Positions 1-42,844 of a DNA stretch of 43,220 nt are shown here, in pieces. This DNA comes from a virus (Duplodnaviria > Heunggongvirae > Uroviricota > Caudoviricetes): the IMG/VR virus record IMGVR_UViG_2563366806_000003, one strand, 5' to 3'. The position numbers were made by a program, and so were the translations under genes. The first letter of the stretch is position 1. Each line of letters opens with the position of its first letter. The notes beneath the pieces were generated by a model. It searched no databases. It saw nothing but the letters and a program-made list of their open reading frames with translations, and was not told the DNA's origin.

Positions 1-708
1 ATGTGGGTCAATAAGTATATTGACGATTGCACTGATGAGGATTTAAACGATCGTGACTTTATTGCATCAGTTGTTGACCGGGCTATTTTTCATTTCGCGA
101 TTAATAGTATATGTAATCTTGGGGATAATAAAGATGCAATGCCCATTGAACAATGTACTTTTGATGTAGAAACTAAGAATGACCTTCCCTCCACGGTTCA
201 GCTATTTTATGAGGAATCTAAGGATAATGAACCTTTAGCGAATATACATTTTCAAGCAATAGGTTCTGGTTTTTTAACGTTTGTTAATGCCTGCCAGGAA
301 CATGATGACAACAGCTTAAAATTATTTGCTTCGCTGTTAATTTCACTTTCATATTCTAGTGCCTACGCAGATTTATCAGAAACAGTGTATATTAATGAAA
401 ATAATGAGAGCTACCTGAAAGCTCAGTTTGAAAAATTATCTCAACGTGATATGAAGAAGTACCTGGGAGAGATGAGGCGTCTGGCTGATGGGGGAGAAAT
501 GAATTTTGATGGCTATCTGGATAAGATGTCACATCTGGTGAATGAAGGAACGCTCGATCCTGATATTTTAAGCAAAATGCGAGATGCTGCACCACAATTA
601 ATTAGCTTCGCGAAGTCGTTTGACCCAACCTCAAAGGAAGAGATTAAAATACTTACAGTCACTTCTAAATTAATTTATGATTTGTTCGGGGTTAAATCGG
701 AGAAATAA
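1..708 (+). CDS. yjbM: Uncharacterized host protein, 235 aa (YjbM-like), outside the prophage
   Basis: Complete ORF starting at base 1 and followed by an intrinsic terminator; position upstream of dusA and the 235-aa length match my recollection of E. coli K-12 yjbM. Protein sequence itself not independently recognised. Confidence 0.5.
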   Translation: MWVNKYIDDCTDEDLNDRDFIASVVDRAIFHFAINSICNLGDNKDAMPIEQCTFDVETKNDLPSTVQLFYEESKDNEPLANIHFQAIGSGFLTFVNACQEHDDNSLKLFASLLISLSYSSAYADLSETVYINENNESYLKAQFEKLSQRDMKKYLGEMRRLADGGEMNFDGYLDKMSHLVNEGTLDPDILSKMRDAAPQLISFAKSFDPTSKEEIKILTVTSKLIYDLFGVKSEK

Positions 709-748
709 TATGTGAAGTTCTTCGATAGTATGGAAGGCATTATATAAA

Positions 749-778
749 AGGACCCAATATTTATTGGGTTCTTTTTTC
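749..778 (+). terminator. Rho-independent terminator after the yjbM-like gene
   Basis: Hairpin gacccaata/tattgggt followed by a T-run (cttttttctc). Confidence 0.6.
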
Positions 779-1070
779 TCTATCAATGCTATTAGCAGGG
801 AGATATATCACCAGAGTTTAATGTGTGATTTTTTATTTATCGTCGAACCTGGATTGTTTATCATTGGCCTTAACAAAGTTAACGGCTAATAAGATTATTT
901 CCATCACTTCGTGAGAGCTTCATGCCTTGAGAGGATCTCAATTTTCTTTTGCAATGAGACAGGCGCTTCCTGTTGTTATGGTATAGTACCTCGCTATTGA
1001 GCCTCCTGAACAGTGATGCTGAATAACATAACCCCATGATATATCGATAAAATAATCTCTACATTTGAAA

Positions 1071-1193
1071 ATGCACGGTAATTCTGAAATGCAAAAAATC
1101 AACCAAACCAGCGCAATGCCTGAAAAAACTGACGTTCACTGGAGTGGTCGGTTTAGCGTTGCACCAATGCTCGATAGGATGTACCGTTTTTGA
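1071..1193 (+). pseudogene. dusA: Displaced native 5' fragment of dusA (first ~35 codons, then out-of-frame phage DNA and stop); attL side
   Basis: Translates MHGNSEMQKINQTSAMPEKTDVHWSGRFSVAPMLD, paralogous to the N-terminus of the intact dusA at 41807; similarity ends after atgctcga (1167-1174). Confidence 0.8.
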
Positions 1194-1318
1194 AAAACAA
1201 GTAGTTATACACTTTGTGGGAGCCTATTGGGAACCCGGTGTTTTCATTTCAAGGTGTAATCCATGCCGGGCATCAGAATGAGATATAATGAGATTTTTAG
1301 TGTTCCGCTTGAGAGTCT

Positions 1319-1855
1319 ATGATGCTTACCCTAGACGAGATAGGTCAATCTGTACGTAACAATATCCAGTTGATTATTGATCATGTCGGCTTACCTCTTG
1401 CTGTTGGTCCGCTCAGTGATGATGATTACAAGATTCTGTGTGGTGGCTATGGTGAGCTTGAATGGGACTATGCGTTAAGCACCTATGGCAACTCCAGAGA
1501 AAAGTATGAGTTCTGCATAAAACTTGTTCAGCAAGGTCGGGTTCAGGGAATACCATCAGGAGCAGCAATTTGTGTTTATGGGGTTGAAGAAAACATCTTT
1601 CGTATCCATATGATCGAAAGGTTTTCTAGAGAAGATGAATCTCACCCATTGAAAGGGCGCATGGTTTTACTCACTCTTATGAGTGCTTTTATATTTTGTA
1701 AAGCTGTTGAATGTAAAGTTGTCCACATTGTAGAGCCAGTACCAGAACTGGTGCAGTATTACGAGTCTTTTGGTTTCCGCATGGAACAGTGCGGTTATGT
1801 GATGTCTGCAGTCATTGATGAGCTGCAGGATATCTTTCTTAAATTTGCTCAGTAG
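1319..1855 (+). CDS. Hypothetical cargo protein, 178 aa, weak GNAT-fold-like C-terminus (…YYESFGF…)
   Basis: AT-rich ORF just inside attL, opposite in orientation to the adjacent phage early genes; function not recognised. Confidence 0.5.
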   Translation: MMLTLDEIGQSVRNNIQLIIDHVGLPLAVGPLSDDDYKILCGGYGELEWDYALSTYGNSREKYEFCIKLVQQGRVQGIPSGAAICVYGVEENIFRIHMIERFSREDESHPLKGRMVLLTLMSAFIFCKAVECKVVHIVEPVPELVQYYESFGFRMEQCGYVMSAVIDELQDIFLKFAQ

Positions 1856-2051: not shown

Positions 2052-2225
2052 ATGAAAGATCAAAAAGCAACCAAGCCACAGGTTAAGTTCGACACAATGA
2101 AAGCATTCGCAGGTATGGGTGCTGCTGTTGAAGTTCTGATGAAGGCTGCTCCTAATGCGTTCACTCACGCTACTGTCTCTGGTAAAGAGCAGCAGGGTAA
2201 GCTTCGTCGTCGCAAAGCAGCATGA
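2052..2225 (+). CDS. Small hypothetical protein, 57 aa, basic C-terminus
   Basis: ATG preceded by GGAG at about -8; followed directly by a strong intrinsic terminator; upstream perfect palindrome ccaatcga-N5-tcgattgg (1961-1981). Below the 60-aa cutoff of the ORF track. Confidence 0.4.
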   Translation: MKDQKATKPQVKFDTMKAFAGMGAAVEVLMKAAPNAFTHATVSGKEQQGKLRRRKAA

Positions 2226-2244
2226 TCATAGCTGGTGCTTTTTG

Positions 2245-2272
2245 AAAACCCGCCTTTAGGCGGGTTTTTTCT
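2245..2272. terminator. Bidirectional intrinsic terminator (acccgcc-ttta-ggcgggt) between the small + gene and the leftward early operon
   Basis: GC hairpin flanked by an A-run upstream and a T-run downstream. Confidence 0.65.
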
Positions 2273-2554
2273 TTAGTGATGTTCTTTGCCCTTCTGTTTG
2301 CTTGTTCTGACCTGTTCCCACTCGATACGTCCTTCTTCTCGTCTTTTGTCTATGTATTCCGCAAGATCCTGAATATTGATGCAACGTTTTGCTTTTTGTG
2401 ATGTGCCGATGCGATATGTTGGAACGGGCAACTTACAAGCGTTTGCTTTTGCTTCTGCCGTGGCTGGACTCATGCCAAAGTACTTTTGGCTAACTGCTGA
2501 GAGTTCAATGTTAGGGGTATTGAATTCAGCCATCAGTAAAAACAAGGTGTTCAT
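2273..2554 (-). CDS. PrtN-family DNA-binding protein (excisionase-like / pyocin-activator-like regulator)
   Basis: MNTLFLLMAEFNT… resembles PrtN-family proteins; internal ATG at 2552-2554 preceded by GGAG; the track ORF extends to a GTG at 2581. Confidence 0.55.
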   Translation of the reverse strand: MNTLFLLMAEFNTPNIELSAVSQKYFGMSPATAEAKANACKLPVPTYRIGTSQKAKRCINIQDLAEYIDKRREEGRIEWEQVRTSKQKGKEHH

Positions 2555-2590
2555 AATTTTCTCCATCAAAACCGGCTGCACCCGGGAAAA

Positions 2591-15045: not shown

Positions 15046-16098
15046 ATGAAAAATACTGTAAAAATAAACAGTGTTGATTTAATCAACGCTGATTGCCTGC
15101 ATTTTATTCAGTCCCTGCCTGATGATTCCATTGACCTGATTGTTACCGATCCGCCTTACTTCAAGGTGAAACCTAACGGTTGGGACAATCAGTGGAAAGG
15201 GGACGAAGATTACCTTAAGTGGCTGGACCACTGTCTGGCCCAGTTCTGGCGGGTGTTGAAACCTGCCGGAAGCCTTTACCTGTTCTGTGGGCATCGCCTG
15301 GCATCTGATATTGAGATCATGATGCGTGAACGTTTCAACGTGCTTAACCATATCATCTGGGCGAAGCCGTCCGGACGTTGGAATGGGTGTAATAAAGAAA
15401 GTCTGCGCGCATATTTTCCTGCCACAGAGCGCGTTCTGTTTGCTGAACATTACCAGGGGCCATATCGCGGCAAAAGTGACGGCTATGCGGCAAAAGAAAG
15501 GGAACTCAAACAGCACATAATGGCACCGCTGATATCGTATTTCAGGGATGCTCGTGCCGAACTGGGTATAACGGCAAAACAAATTGCCGAAGCCACAGGT
15601 AAGAAAAATATGGTTTCCCACTGGTTTGGTGCCAGTCAGTGGCAGTTGCCGAATGAGGCTGACTATCGGAAGTTACAGGCACTGTTTTCCCGTATAGCGG
15701 CAGAGAAGTTTCAGGAACAACAACTGGAACAACCACACCACCAGCTGGTGGCATCTTATGATTCACTGAATCGCAAATATTCTGAATTGCTGGATGAGTT
15801 TAAATCTCTCCGGCGCTATTTCTCCGTATCAGTTTCCGTGCCTTATACCGATGTCTGGACGCATAAGCCCGTTCAGTTCTATCCGGGTAAACATCCGTGC
15901 GAGAAACCGGCGGATATGCTCCGGCAAATAATCAATGCCAGTAGTCGACCTGGTGATCTGGTTGCTGATTTCTTTATGGGATCCGGTTCCACAATAAAAG
16001 CAGCAATGGCGCTGGGGCGTCGGGCGTTAGGTGTTGAACTTGAGTCAGAGCGGTTTAATCAGACGGTGAAAGAGGTAAGTGAACTGGTGGGGAAATAA
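15046..16098 (+). CDS. Orphan DNA N6-adenine/N4-cytosine methyltransferase (beta-class)
   Basis: DPPY motif (…IVTDPPYF…) near the N-terminus and FxGxG (…DFFMGSGST…) near the C-terminus; no adjacent restriction endonuclease. Confidence 0.8.
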   Translation: MKNTVKINSVDLINADCLHFIQSLPDDSIDLIVTDPPYFKVKPNGWDNQWKGDEDYLKWLDHCLAQFWRVLKPAGSLYLFCGHRLASDIEIMMRERFNVLNHIIWAKPSGRWNGCNKESLRAYFPATERVLFAEHYQGPYRGKSDGYAAKERELKQHIMAPLISYFRDARAELGITAKQIAEATGKKNMVSHWFGASQWQLPNEADYRKLQALFSRIAAEKFQEQQLEQPHHQLVASYDSLNRKYSELLDEFKSLRRYFSVSVSVPYTDVWTHKPVQFYPGKHPCEKPADMLRQIINASSRPGDLVADFFMGSGSTIKAAMALGRRALGVELESERFNQTVKEVSELVGK

Positions 16099-40310: not shown

Positions 40311-40559
40311 TTAGTGAACAAACCACTCGTCAGCAGATTCCCAGGTATCTTTCAGAGTCTCCTGAACAAAAGTTTTTGCAGAATCCTTATCTGCGGTGCG
40401 TGTAACAGAAAGGCCATCATTGCTGGTGGCTTTTACTAACACCTCAACATCGTCATAACGCTTACTGATGCGTCGGGTTAATTCTTCCTTTAACGCATCC
40501 ACAGCACCGGTTGGCATTTTAGTCATTTTTTCTTTGGCTATGCAGATTTCAATACGCAT
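40311..40559 (-). CDS. dinI: DinI-family protein
   Basis: MRIEICIAK…, and C-terminal …[15 protein letters not shown]… match host DinI; two LexA boxes immediately upstream. Confidence 0.85.
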
Positions 40560-40572
40560 AAAAGTCCCTCCA

Positions 40573-40620
40573 TACTGTGTTTGTATACAGCATTATTTTT
40601 AACTGTATGGATAAACAGTG
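40573..40620. promoter_or_regulatory. Two tandem LexA (SOS) boxes upstream of the dinI-like gene
   Basis: tACTGTgtttgtatACAGca (40573-40592) and aaCTGTatggataaACAGtg (40601-40620), both CTGT-N8-ACAG. Confidence 0.7.
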
Positions 40621-41718
40621 TCAAGAGGTCTTATTTCTGCTCCTTTGGAGCTCTTCAAAACGATTATGTAAAGATTTCGGATACAGTTCGGTATATACCT
40701 GCCATAGCACGTTTAATGAACGATGCCCTGTAACTTGGGCGACTTCCTCAATACTAAAACCAGCCTCAAATAAGCGACTTGCCCCTTCTCTACGCAAATC
40801 ATGGTATCGCAGATCCTTAATACCTAATTTGCTTCTTACTCTCTGAAATCCCGCAGTAACAGAAGTGCTGTTATATGGAAAAATGAATTCCGATTTTTGG
40901 GGCTGTCGTTGGACGATATCCCAGGCTTCCCCAAGCAAGGCTACTTTCATGTGGTTGCCTTCCTTTTTGCGTGGATCTTTCCTGTCTCTTACGAGTATAG
41001 ATTTTTGTTCCTGGTCGAGATCTTCCCATCGTAACCGGCATACTTCTCCGATTCGCATACAGGACCATACAGAAAATTTGAGGATATCAACGAACGGAAT
41101 TTTTGAGCATTTATGAGTAGATCGTTGTTGAAGGCCTGCAATGAGCATGTCCAGTTCATCAGATGCTGGTCTACGATTACGACGGTTTGATTTACCAATC
41201 AAACCAAGTTTAAGTAGATATGGGCGAGCGCTTTTCGCCGGGTTTGATGTGTAATTAATTCCGTATACAGGTTTGGCCGCATCCAGAACACTGCCAAGAT
41301 AACTAACATCGTGGCTGACTGTTGCAGGACCTGCACCAGCGTTGTTTCTTAGCCTGCAATGTTCAATTACGTCATTTTCTGTCAGTTCAGATAGTTTGAT
41401 CGCGGAGATGTCACTATCCATAAGCAGTTCCAGCACATATCTTTTAGTACGGCCTGCTTTACCTCCGGCATTTGGGTCATTTAAATATTTGTGTAGTAAG
41501 TCACGGACTGTAAGTCCGTCAACTGCATTTGATGATGGAATACCATATAGATCTAATTCCATCACTTTCTGTGTGCCCCATGTTTTGGCATGAGCATGTT
41601 TAGGGAATGTTTTGCTTTCCCTGTAAGTGATAACACCTTTTTCTTTGATAATCACATTACAGCGATAGCGTGGTGTGCCATCGGATTTTAGTCGTTTCTC
41701 TATGTTATAGTACGCCAT
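40621..41718 (-). CDS. int: Tyrosine integrase (dusA-specific type)
   Basis: 365 aa with C-terminal catalytic region (…HDLRREGASRLFEAG…VTGHRSLNVLWQVY…); adjacent and divergent to dusA. Confidence 0.9.
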   Translation of the reverse strand: MAYYNIEKRLKSDGTPRYRCNVIIKEKGVITYRESKTFPKHAHAKTWGTQKVMELDLYGIPSSNAVDGLTVRDLLHKYLNDPNAGGKAGRTKRYVLELLMDSDISAIKLSELTENDVIEHCRLRNNAGAGPATVSHDVSYLGSVLDAAKPVYGINYTSNPAKSARPYLLKLGLIGKSNRRNRRPASDELDMLIAGLQQRSTHKCSKIPFVDILKFSVWSCMRIGEVCRLRWEDLDQEQKSILVRDRKDPRKKEGNHMKVALLGEAWDIVQRQPQKSEFIFPYNSTSVTAGFQRVRSKLGIKDLRYHDLRREGASRLFEAGFSIEEVAQVTGHRSLNVLWQVYTELYPKSLHNRFEELQRSRNKTS

Positions 41719-41806
41719 TACACGACCTCGTTATTTCGGGTTCCCATAAAACGTGGGAACCTGTGCGGGAACCTAACGCGAGAAAAATAGCCTGAAATGT
41801 TCAAAA

Positions 41807-42844
41807 ATGCACGATAATCATGAAACACAAAAAATTAATCAAACCAGCGTGATGCCTGAAAAAACTGGTGTTTACTGGAATTCTCGGTTTAGCATTGCTC
41901 CTATGCTCGACTGGACGGACAGACATTGCCGCTATTTCTTGCGTCTGCTTTCCCGCAATACGTTGCTGTATACTGAAATGGTAACTACAGGGGCGATTAT
42001 TCACGGTAAAGGTGATTACCTGGCGTATAGTGAAGAAGAACATCCGGTAGCGTTGCAACTCGGCGGTAGCGATCCGGCGGCGCTGGCGCAGTGTGCGAAG
42101 CTGGCAGAAGCGCGTGGATATGATGAGATCAACCTGAATGTCGGCTGCCCGTCTGACCGGGTGCAGAACGGCATGTTTGGTGCGTGTCTGATGGGTAATG
42201 CGCAGCTGGTTGCCGACTGCGTGAAAGCGATGCGCGATGTGGTGTCGATTCCGGTGACGGTGAAAACGCGTATTGGCATCGACGACCAGGACAGCTATGA
42301 ATTTCTCTGCGATTTCATCAACACCGTTTCCGGCAAAGGCGAGTGTGAGATGTTCATCATCCATGCACGTAAAGCCTGGCTTTCGGGGTTAAGTCCGAAA
42401 GAAAACCGTGAGATCCCGCCGCTCGATTATCCGCGTGTGTATCAACTGAAGCGTGACTTTCCGCATCTGACAATGTCGATTAACGGTGGTATCAAGTCGC
42501 TGGAAGAGGCCAAAGCACACCTGCAACATATGGATGGCGTGATGGTCGGGCGCGAGGCGTATCAGAATCCGGGTATTCTGGCGGCGGTAGACCGGGAGAT
42601 CTTTGGTTCCTCGGATATCGATGCCGATCCGGTGGCGGTAGTGCGCGCCATGTATCCGTACATTGAGCGTGAACTCAGCCAGGGGACGTATCTCGGTCAT
42701 ATTACCCGGCATATGTTGGGCTTGTTCCAGGGTATTCCTGGCGCGCGGCAGTGGCGGCGTTATTTAAGTGAAAACGCCCATAAAGCGGGTGCAGACATTA
42801 ATGTGCTGGAACACGCGCTCAAACTGGTGGCGGATAAGCGTTAA
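41807..42844 (+). CDS. dusA: tRNA-dihydrouridine(20/20a) synthase DusA; first ~32 codons supplied by the prophage
   Basis: 345 aa Dus-family protein; N-terminus [35 protein letters not shown] differs from the displaced native N-terminus at 1071-1175. Confidence 0.9.

Follow-up and report, generated by a model that had tools for sequence, protein, structure and literature searches.

The window analysed here is a stretch of 43,220 nucleotides, catalogued in IMG/VR as the Caudoviricetes record IMGVR_UViG_2563366806_000003. Its outer parts are host DNA around the gene dusA, and what lies between them is prophage. The features that bear on the integration site are listed below, with arm-repeat offsets counted from the first core base in the reconstructed attP.

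1-708, plus strand: host flank, the DUF2713 (yjbM-type) gene upstream of dusA (PF10897, E 1.3e-164), the same neighbour as at the empty-site locus
1071-1193, plus strand: attL, the displaced native dusA 5′ end (codons 1-35 at 1071-1175) followed by phage DNA and a stop after 40 codons; it matches uninterrupted dusA up to 1174
1167-1174, plus strand: core ATGCTCGA at attL, the strand-exchange region and the sole block identical in attL, attR, attB and attP
1175-41910: prophage of 40,736 bp, a lambdoid regulatory module plus a contractile-tail morphogenesis module (junctions; PHROG matches)
1218-1235, plus strand: predicted P′ arm-type sites, GGGAGCC at 1218-1224 (+51) and GGGAACC at 1229-1235 (+62); YeP1 has identical offsets and EKP1 offsets that deviate by no more than 1 nt, both with different 7-mers
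1319-1855, plus strand: phage cargo ORF of 178 aa, co-oriented with the native dusA promoter (phrog_4350, unknown function; homologue mEp460_023)
2052-2225, plus strand: phage cargo ORF of 57 aa (phrog_2741; homologue mEp460_024)
2244-2269, plus strand: terminator-like hairpin (11-pair stem, then a T run) between the cargo ORFs and the convergent PrtN/RdfN-like gene
2273-2581, minus strand: PrtN/RdfN-family protein of 102 aa, a probable recombination directionality factor (RDF, excisionase) (PF11112, E 4.1e-23; phrog_1300 'excisionase', E 8.3e-40)
40311-40559, minus strand: DinI-like gene downstream of int (PF06183, E 1.1e-19)
40575-40618: two SOS-box-like CTGT-N8-ACAG sites (40575-40590 and 40603-40618, from a motif count) upstream of the dinI-like gene
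40621-41718, minus strand: dusA-associated tyrosine integrase (Int) of 365 aa (PF00589, E 8.4e-21; catalytic residues; Int homology)
41739-41773: predicted P arm-type sites in the int/dusA′ divergent intergenic region, GGGAACC inverted at 41739-41745 (-164) and direct at 41755-41761 (-148) and 41767-41773 (-136)
41807-41902, plus strand: phage-borne dusA′ (codons 1-32) in place of the native start; in the attP of mEp460 it is continuous with phage DNA
41807-42844, plus strand: chimeric dusA of 345 aa, made of phage codons 1-32, the core and host codons 36-345 (alignment; NF008774)
41903-41910, plus strand: core ATGCTCGA at attR, placed by alignment with the empty site and by the mEp460 attP

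The original prediction held that two copies of the dusA 5′ coding region lie about 40.7 kb apart, share only short identical blocks and mark the ends of a prophage. The two copies are indeed there as 105-nt imperfect direct repeats, at 1071-1175 and 41807-41911, with 19 differences (~82% identity) and no gap over 35 codons. Their similarity starts ~10 nt upstream of the ATG and is gone within ~12 nt past the core; it goes well past anything chance would give. Identity is as patchy as had been proposed, the longest identical block being 16 nt (ATGCCTGAAAAAACTG); the 8-bp block ATGCTCGA is also identical in both, at 1167-1174 and 41903-41910. At the left end, the ORF at 1071-1193 translates as MHGNSEMQKINQTSAMPEKTDVHWSGRFSVAPMLDRMYRF*, 40 codons in all. 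In the related lysogen EC09, the equivalent remnant is called an incomplete tRNA-dihydrouridine synthase pseudogene by PGAP.

Joining window positions 600-1174 to 41911-42500 yields the predicted empty site, which was searched against 5,426 complete E. coli genomes. A contiguous match is found in 3,609 of them, with a best identity of 99.8%; in these uninterrupted genomes the 1071-1174 fragment runs directly into dusA codon 36 and onward, as it should if the native 5′ end has been displaced. E. coli 504239 illustrates the uninterrupted locus, in which zur, the DUF2713 gene, dusA, pspG and qorA follow one another with no insert. In a three-way alignment, its empty site equals the left copy of the window through ATGCTCGA and the right-hand sequence of the window from ATGCTCGA on, which puts the junction switch inside that block. 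The free phage mEp460 has the reciprocal joint, with the equivalent of window 41637-41910 directly followed by that of 1175-1340. Three further IMG/VR contigs carry the same attP, and 49 show attR joined to E. coli dusA. An origin of the two dusA 5′ copies by simple tandem or segmental duplication was considered and rejected, because free phages carry the reciprocal attP.

The empty site and the mEp460 attP thus bear out ATGCTCGA as the crossover core. The bases that bound it tell host from phage on both sides (A in the host and T in the phage at 1166/41902; T in the phage and C in the host at 1175/41911), and strand exchange is therefore confined to these 8 bases, giving an insert of 40,736 bp from 1175 to 41910. 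attL (GTTGCACCAATGCTCGATAGGAT) and attR (ATTGCTCCTATGCTCGACTGGAC) form semi-conserved direct repeats within dusA that have ATGCTCGA in common, and they align with the attL and attR printed for A. baumannii in the Farrugia supplement (PMC4482086).

The integrase starts at 41718, 88 bp from the chimeric dusA ATG at 41807, in divergent orientation and at one end of the insert. Its catalytic residues R222, H306, R309, H332 and Y342 are conserved in a five-integrase alignment and were aligned to XerA (5hxy). The original prediction had pointed to its position beside the restored dusA and to dusA-associated integrases as its likely kin. Such a comparison gives 98.6% identity to the Int of mEp460, a named homologue of the DAI family, and 99.2% to that of phage 1720a-02; across 1720a-02, Lys8385Vzw, phiSTEC1575-Stx2k and PhiR40_1 the range is 99.2-99.5%. 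Identity is 68% to the Yersinia phages YeP1-3, ~55% to Vibrio, Salinivibrio and Pseudoalteromonas phages, and 34-37% to the Burkholderia, Ralstonia and Pseudomonas phages listed by Farrugia as DAI homologues. Over at least 93% of its length, it is 34-36% identical to the integrases of BcepIL02, DC1, AH2, BcepMigl and H66, all DAI homologues in PMC4482086. Five of the features that define DAI membership are present: an RHRH-Y tyrosine recombinase, family homology, an int gene beside the dusA 5′ end, att repeats and in-frame replacement. The empty site, the free-phage attP and integrase homology thus agree on a prophage in the dusA 5′ end with the native fragment displaced.

One mark of RdfN is a small PF11112 protein encoded in a dusA-specific element, and the product of 2273-2581 is such a protein. 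By analogy it is the probable recombination directionality factor of this prophage. RdfN has been shown experimentally to be the RDF of dusA-specific elements, and its requirement for excision was shown for IMEVchUSA3 only (Durand 2021, PMC8409611). The PrtN-like gene of YeP1 and EKP1 lies immediately beside attP and is oriented towards int.

The window almost certainly comes from a lysogen: a temperate phage has entered codons 33-35 of E. coli dusA through site-specific recombination catalysed by a tyrosine recombinase. The steps are as follows. The phage attP holds a diverged, in-frame copy of dusA codons 1-35 ending at the core ATGCTCGA, within which Int exchanges strands. The native dusA start is then stranded at attL, where it runs into phage DNA and ends after 40 codons. 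At attR, the phage copy is joined to dusA codon 36 onward, giving a full-length DusA whose changes are confined to the first 30 residues, a part of low conservation. To leave the chromosome, the prophage would need Int together with the PrtN/RdfN-type factor, and native dusA would be restored.

Whether this last step is still open to the prophage is where an alternative survives best. The element could be a defective remnant, unable to excise, whose att sites are fossils; the related lysogen EC09 does have several pseudogenes in its early and tail-fibre regions. This is unlikely for the window itself: nothing is missing from int, the rdfN-like gene, the two cores or the five arm repeats, each head, tail, lysis and regulatory ORF tested has its full length, and the close relatives are deposited as complete phage genomes. 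One may infer that the prophage is still excision-competent.

The prophage as a whole has PHROG matches to a repressor, a Cro-like regulator, Q, the large terminase, portal, major head, tail sheath, tape measure and baseplate. Window 1175-25000 is 98.4% identical to phage vB_EcoM-720R4 over 82%, and 43% of it matches mEp460. The prophage is a mosaic, which couples an mEp460-type integration and early region to a contractile-tail virion module of the SfV / vB_EcoM-720R4 type. Near its right end, both LexA-box-like sites fall in the 61 bp that separate the stop codon of int from the dinI-like gene. The motif CTGT-N8-ACAG has three matches in the window against 0.64 expected, and the third, at 15056-15071, is found where a methyltransferase ORF begins.

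The second half of the original prediction, that the phage supplies an in-frame replacement with its own start codon, is substantiated by the intact ORF at 41807-42844 and by the contiguous mEp460 attP. Chimeric and native DusA are identical at 336 of 345 positions, and all 9 changes fall within residues 3-30. The full-length chimeric protein lies above the curated equivalog thresholds for DusA, with 559 bits against NF008774 (cutoff 269) and 580 bits against TIGR00742 (cutoff 397). Since the NF008774 match begins at residue 19, the replaced part consists chiefly of an N-terminal extension of low conservation, together with strand beta1, whose residues RFS(I/V)APMLD are kept. Comparison of the phage dusA 5′ end with that of the host gives a dS of 0.55 and a dN of 0.15 (dN/dS ~0.27, over only 35 codons), which is modest evidence that the phage dusA′ is kept as coding sequence.

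A scan of 41300-42000, the int/dusA′ region, gave no matches to the sigma-70 consensus, and one of 700-2700 gave weak matches only, no better than shuffles. By analogy with related elements, it is plausible, as the original prediction has it, that the chimeric dusA is transcribed from a phage promoter. At E. coli K-12 dusA, IMEVchUSA3 brings a new, weaker promoter, and a dusA′-lacZ fusion stays active at a reduced level (PMC8409611). In Acinetobacter, -10 and -35 boxes were predicted by Farrugia 2015 (PMC4482086).

The lack of a consensus promoter upstream of 41807 could also be read differently, with integration inactivating dusA, the chimeric ORF silent or non-functional and the lysogen left without D20/D20a. 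The reduced expression that follows integration of the related element (Durand 2021, PMC8409611) points the same way, and dusA loss had no detectable phenotype in A. baumannii phenotype arrays (PMC4482086), so that selection to keep dusA working may be weak. Inactivation is nonetheless improbable: the frame is intact, the equivalog score is far over threshold, the beta1 residues are kept, the dN/dS of the dusA′ segment indicates purifying selection, and for IMEVchUSA3, integrated at this very E. coli site, expression has been shown (PMC8409611).

The phage copy of the dusA start is itself variable. Among 53 IMG/VR loci, whose integrases are nearly all 98-100% identical, 13 different dusA′ N-terminal peptides occur, and 12 of these 13 variants keep the open frame. 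One variant has its first 8 codons shifted and is intact from M16 onward. The first ~15 residues of DusA appear dispensable, and the functional start may be M16. Two IMG/VR lysogens carry a hybrid attR, with phage alleles at nt 1-45 and native E. coli alleles at nt 62-99; in both, the alleles change over within the identical 16-nt stretch. The two dusA 5′ copies therefore do undergo homologous exchange or gene conversion. RecA recombination needs a minimal length of homology, and RecA-mediated deletion of the prophage is probably limited, because the longest identical run is only 16 nt.

That the phage dusA 5′ copy is an accidental passenger from one imprecise excision, and not a maintained part of attP, is highly improbable: the copy is clearly homologous to Escherichia dusA (82% nucleotide identity) and the hybrid versions attest to exchange with the host copy, but an in-frame dusA-like start ending in the core recurs in 10 of 10 attP lineages checked (Int 34-99% identical), with a different sequence in every lineage, synonymous change outweighs non-synonymous change, the frame survives in all but one of the IMG/VR peptide variants, and the same pattern extends across more than 90 islands (Farrugia 2015, PMC4482086; Durand 2021, PMC8409611).

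Integration with replacement of the dusA start has close counterparts among phages. The attP of mEp460 (JQ182728) has the same structure and a near-identical sequence, including dusA′, the core and the arm repeats, and this phage also shares the two cargo ORFs, the PrtN-like gene and the DinI-like gene, besides its 98.6% identical Int. The dusA′ peptides of the two differ at 5 positions. Unlike the window prophage, whose contractile tail (sheath, tube, baseplate) resembles that of SfV and vB_EcoM-720R4, mEp460 has an annotated lambda-type side tail fibre, which points to lambda-like virion genes.

For the Stx2 phage 1720a-02 (phi-stx2dact), which resides in Citrobacter rodentium dusA, the integration into dusA, attL, attR, attP, attB and a 7-base core were mapped experimentally, and attP reads were obtained from infected mice (Balasubramanian 2019, PMC6328086). 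Excision, too, was demonstrated by experiment for this phage. It too enters ~100 bp into dusA, with a phage 'dusA-prime' fused in frame, and has a conserved core of ~7 bases within ...CATGCTCGAC... and an Int 99.2% identical to the one described here. Its C. rodentium attB TCCAGTCGAGCATGGGAGC is the reverse complement of GCTCCCATGCTCGACTGGA, which contains ATGCTCGA (PMC6328086). It differs in being a Shiga-toxin phage of another host species with a dusA′ annotated as longer (184 bp); the window prophage has no stx.

Farrugia 2015 (PMC4482086) defined the DAI family by its dusA 5′ target, replacement of the 5′ end and a frequent PrtN homologue, and names the mEp460 Int; eight E. coli DAI islands are in its supplement. 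These islands share with the window an Rci-related tyrosine recombinase beside the dusA 5′ end, semi-conserved attL/attR repeats (~21 bp), a replaced 5′ end and a PrtN homologue, and there is no difference in kind. Arm-type sites are absent from that paper's description. The islands of Acinetobacter and Pseudomonas have the core ATGATGGA, in contrast to ATGCTCGA here.

IMEVchUSA3 and SGI1-like elements exchange 35 residues of E. coli DusA when they integrate, and bring in a promoter (Durand 2021, PMC8409611). They use the same E. coli attB as the window prophage, with 35 N-terminal residues replaced, a new promoter and RdfN as the RDF. Unlike it, they are mobilizable islands under IncC AcaCD control, not phages; compared with IMEVchUSA3, the rdfN-like gene here stands at the end of a phage early-left gene block.

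The feature of the site that goes beyond these accounts is a set of short repeats on either side of the core. In lambda-type heterobivalent integrases (those of lambda, HK022 and P2), a short core is flanked by arm motifs on both sides and excision depends on an RDF. The attP reconstructed here resembles their complex attP, spanning ~240 bp with a short core and predicted arm repeats on both sides. It is unlike theirs in that the integrase family is unrelated in sequence and that the spacer between P arm and core appears to double as host-gene coding sequence. Of the seven exact matches to GGGAACC in the 43-kb window, 4 fall in the ~240-bp attP stretch, a count of modest significance (5 of 500 shuffles); the +51 repeat, GGGAGCC, is a one-mismatch copy. 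A search of IMG/VR with the five-integrase alignment returned only copies 89-100% identical, nearly all at least 98%, and diverse attPs were taken from GenBank phages. Among 53 near-identical IMG/VR copies, the three P-arm 7-mers are invariant and the spacers between them vary. The repeats found in other attPs are these.

YeP1 (Int 68% identical): GGGTGCT at -164, -147, -135, +51 and +62
EKP1 (Int 67% identical): GGTGTAC at -163, -148, -136, +50 and +61
Marinobacter AS1: GGAGCAC at -189 and -167 (inverted), -148 and -137, +71 and +82
Burkholderia BcepIL02: GTAGCAA at -197 and -173 (inverted), -158, -146 and -123, +81, with the 6-mer GTAGCA at +70
Ralstonia GP4: GTAGCAA at -199 (inverted), -159 and -147, +71 and +82
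Pseudomonas E220: GTAGCAA at -169 and -148 (inverted), -105, +71 and +82
Vibrio prophage (ends joined): AGTACG (6-mer) at -145 and -134, +53
Pseudoalteromonas C5a: AGGGTGA at -149 and -138, +93 (inverted)
Rhizobium RHph_Y3_1: GTACGA (6-mer) at -147, +50 and +62

In 7 of the 10 attPs, whose Int are 34-99% identical, no more than 5 of 500 dinucleotide shuffles equalled or surpassed the commonest 7-mer. A comparable layout is printed in the Farrugia supplement for an Acinetobacter sequence, with TTACACC and then GGTGTAA-N4-GGTGTAA beside the integrase start (PMC4482086). The five GGGAACC-type repeats are probably arm-type binding sites of the integrase, because the motif changes while its position stays constant, as a heterobivalent integrase would produce. 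No description of arm-type sites for dusA integrases was found in the searchable literature, coverage of which is incomplete, so that this absence is not proof.

In such a complex attP, a direct pair of repeats may lie at about -148/-136 in most lineages and about -158/-146 in BcepIL02 and GP4, E220 being less regular. One or two inverted copies may stand at -164 to -199 and a further direct pair at +50/+61 or +71/+82. The 7-mer may be specific to each lineage (GGGAACC, GGGTGCT, GGTGTAC, GGAGCAC, GTAGCAA) while the positions hold, and the dusA′ coding segment may serve at the same time as the spacer between P arm and core. The dusA′ ORF varies in length, from 35 codons in the enteric phages to 21 in the Vibrio element, and the arm-to-core distance is constant; the coding segment therefore sits in a geometrically constrained attP.

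A putative arm-binding domain would occupy the N-terminus of the integrase. Residues 1-100 have no Pfam match at E up to 10, and the single-sequence AlphaFold2 model of Int has a pLDDT of 42. When the N-terminal 80 residues of ten integrases are aligned, those of the three GTAGCAA phages are alike, but that of the Rhizobium phage, which has a different repeat, is also alike. In Pseudoalteromonas phage C5a (NC_047790), the int CDS is annotated from locus position 917, and homology to the window Int begins at 701. That annotation probably omits the N-terminal ~72 residues, the very part that would form the arm-binding domain. OM284015, deposited as 'Elizabethkingia phage EKP1', carries an enterobacterial-type module of int, dusA′, PrtN and DinI, with the core ATGCTCGA and a dusA′ that ends in RFSIAPMLD; judged by this module, its stated Flavobacteriia host looks doubtful.

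A second and weaker lead is that integration may also swap promoters. A phage promoter may drive host dusA at one end, while at the other the native dusA promoter may read through the 40-codon remnant into the cargo ORFs. No terminator-like site was found between the stop codon of the dusA remnant and the first cargo ORF, and the hairpin behind the second is strong. The 178-aa cargo protein has no Pfam, NCBIfam, PADLOC or PDB sequence match, and its single-sequence AlphaFold2 model (pLDDT 51) is too poor for a fold search. Both cargo ORFs are absent from YeP1 and EKP1. If the promoter swap is true, the two cargo genes would form a lysogen-specific operon. Taken jointly, a lambda-like complex attP of fixed geometry in dusA-specific integrases and a promoter swap on integration are evenly balanced between right and wrong.

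The same int-dusA attR junction occurs in 741 of the 5,426 complete E. coli genomes (~14%), and the same attL junction, at the cargo end, in only 337. With 3,609 genomes empty and 741 carrying the junction, ~1,000 remain that have different DNA at dusA or upstream of it, for instance other elements, IS1 (strain J2) or a variable DUF2713 region. Descriptions of the arrangement go back to 2015 (PMC4482086), and a 2026 DusA paper gives it as background. A prophage in dusA is thus already known and common in E. coli, because every element of the arrangement is published and the junction recurs so widely.

What is gained at this locus is an exact annotation: a prophage at 1175-41910 with its attL and attR, an identical 8-base core and a dusA that is chimeric but intact. 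It would be wrong to call the 105-bp fragment at 1071-1175 a separate gene or an assembly error. The locus is a clean case of a mobile element restoring the gene into which it inserts. As ~14% of complete E. coli genomes carry the junction, it is relevant to prophage typing, including that of Stx phages with the same integrase. The five-site arm architecture is the only part with research value beyond annotation, and a modest new prediction. If confirmed, it would define a minimal attP for a widespread integrase family and make attP and integrase specificity predictable from sequence.
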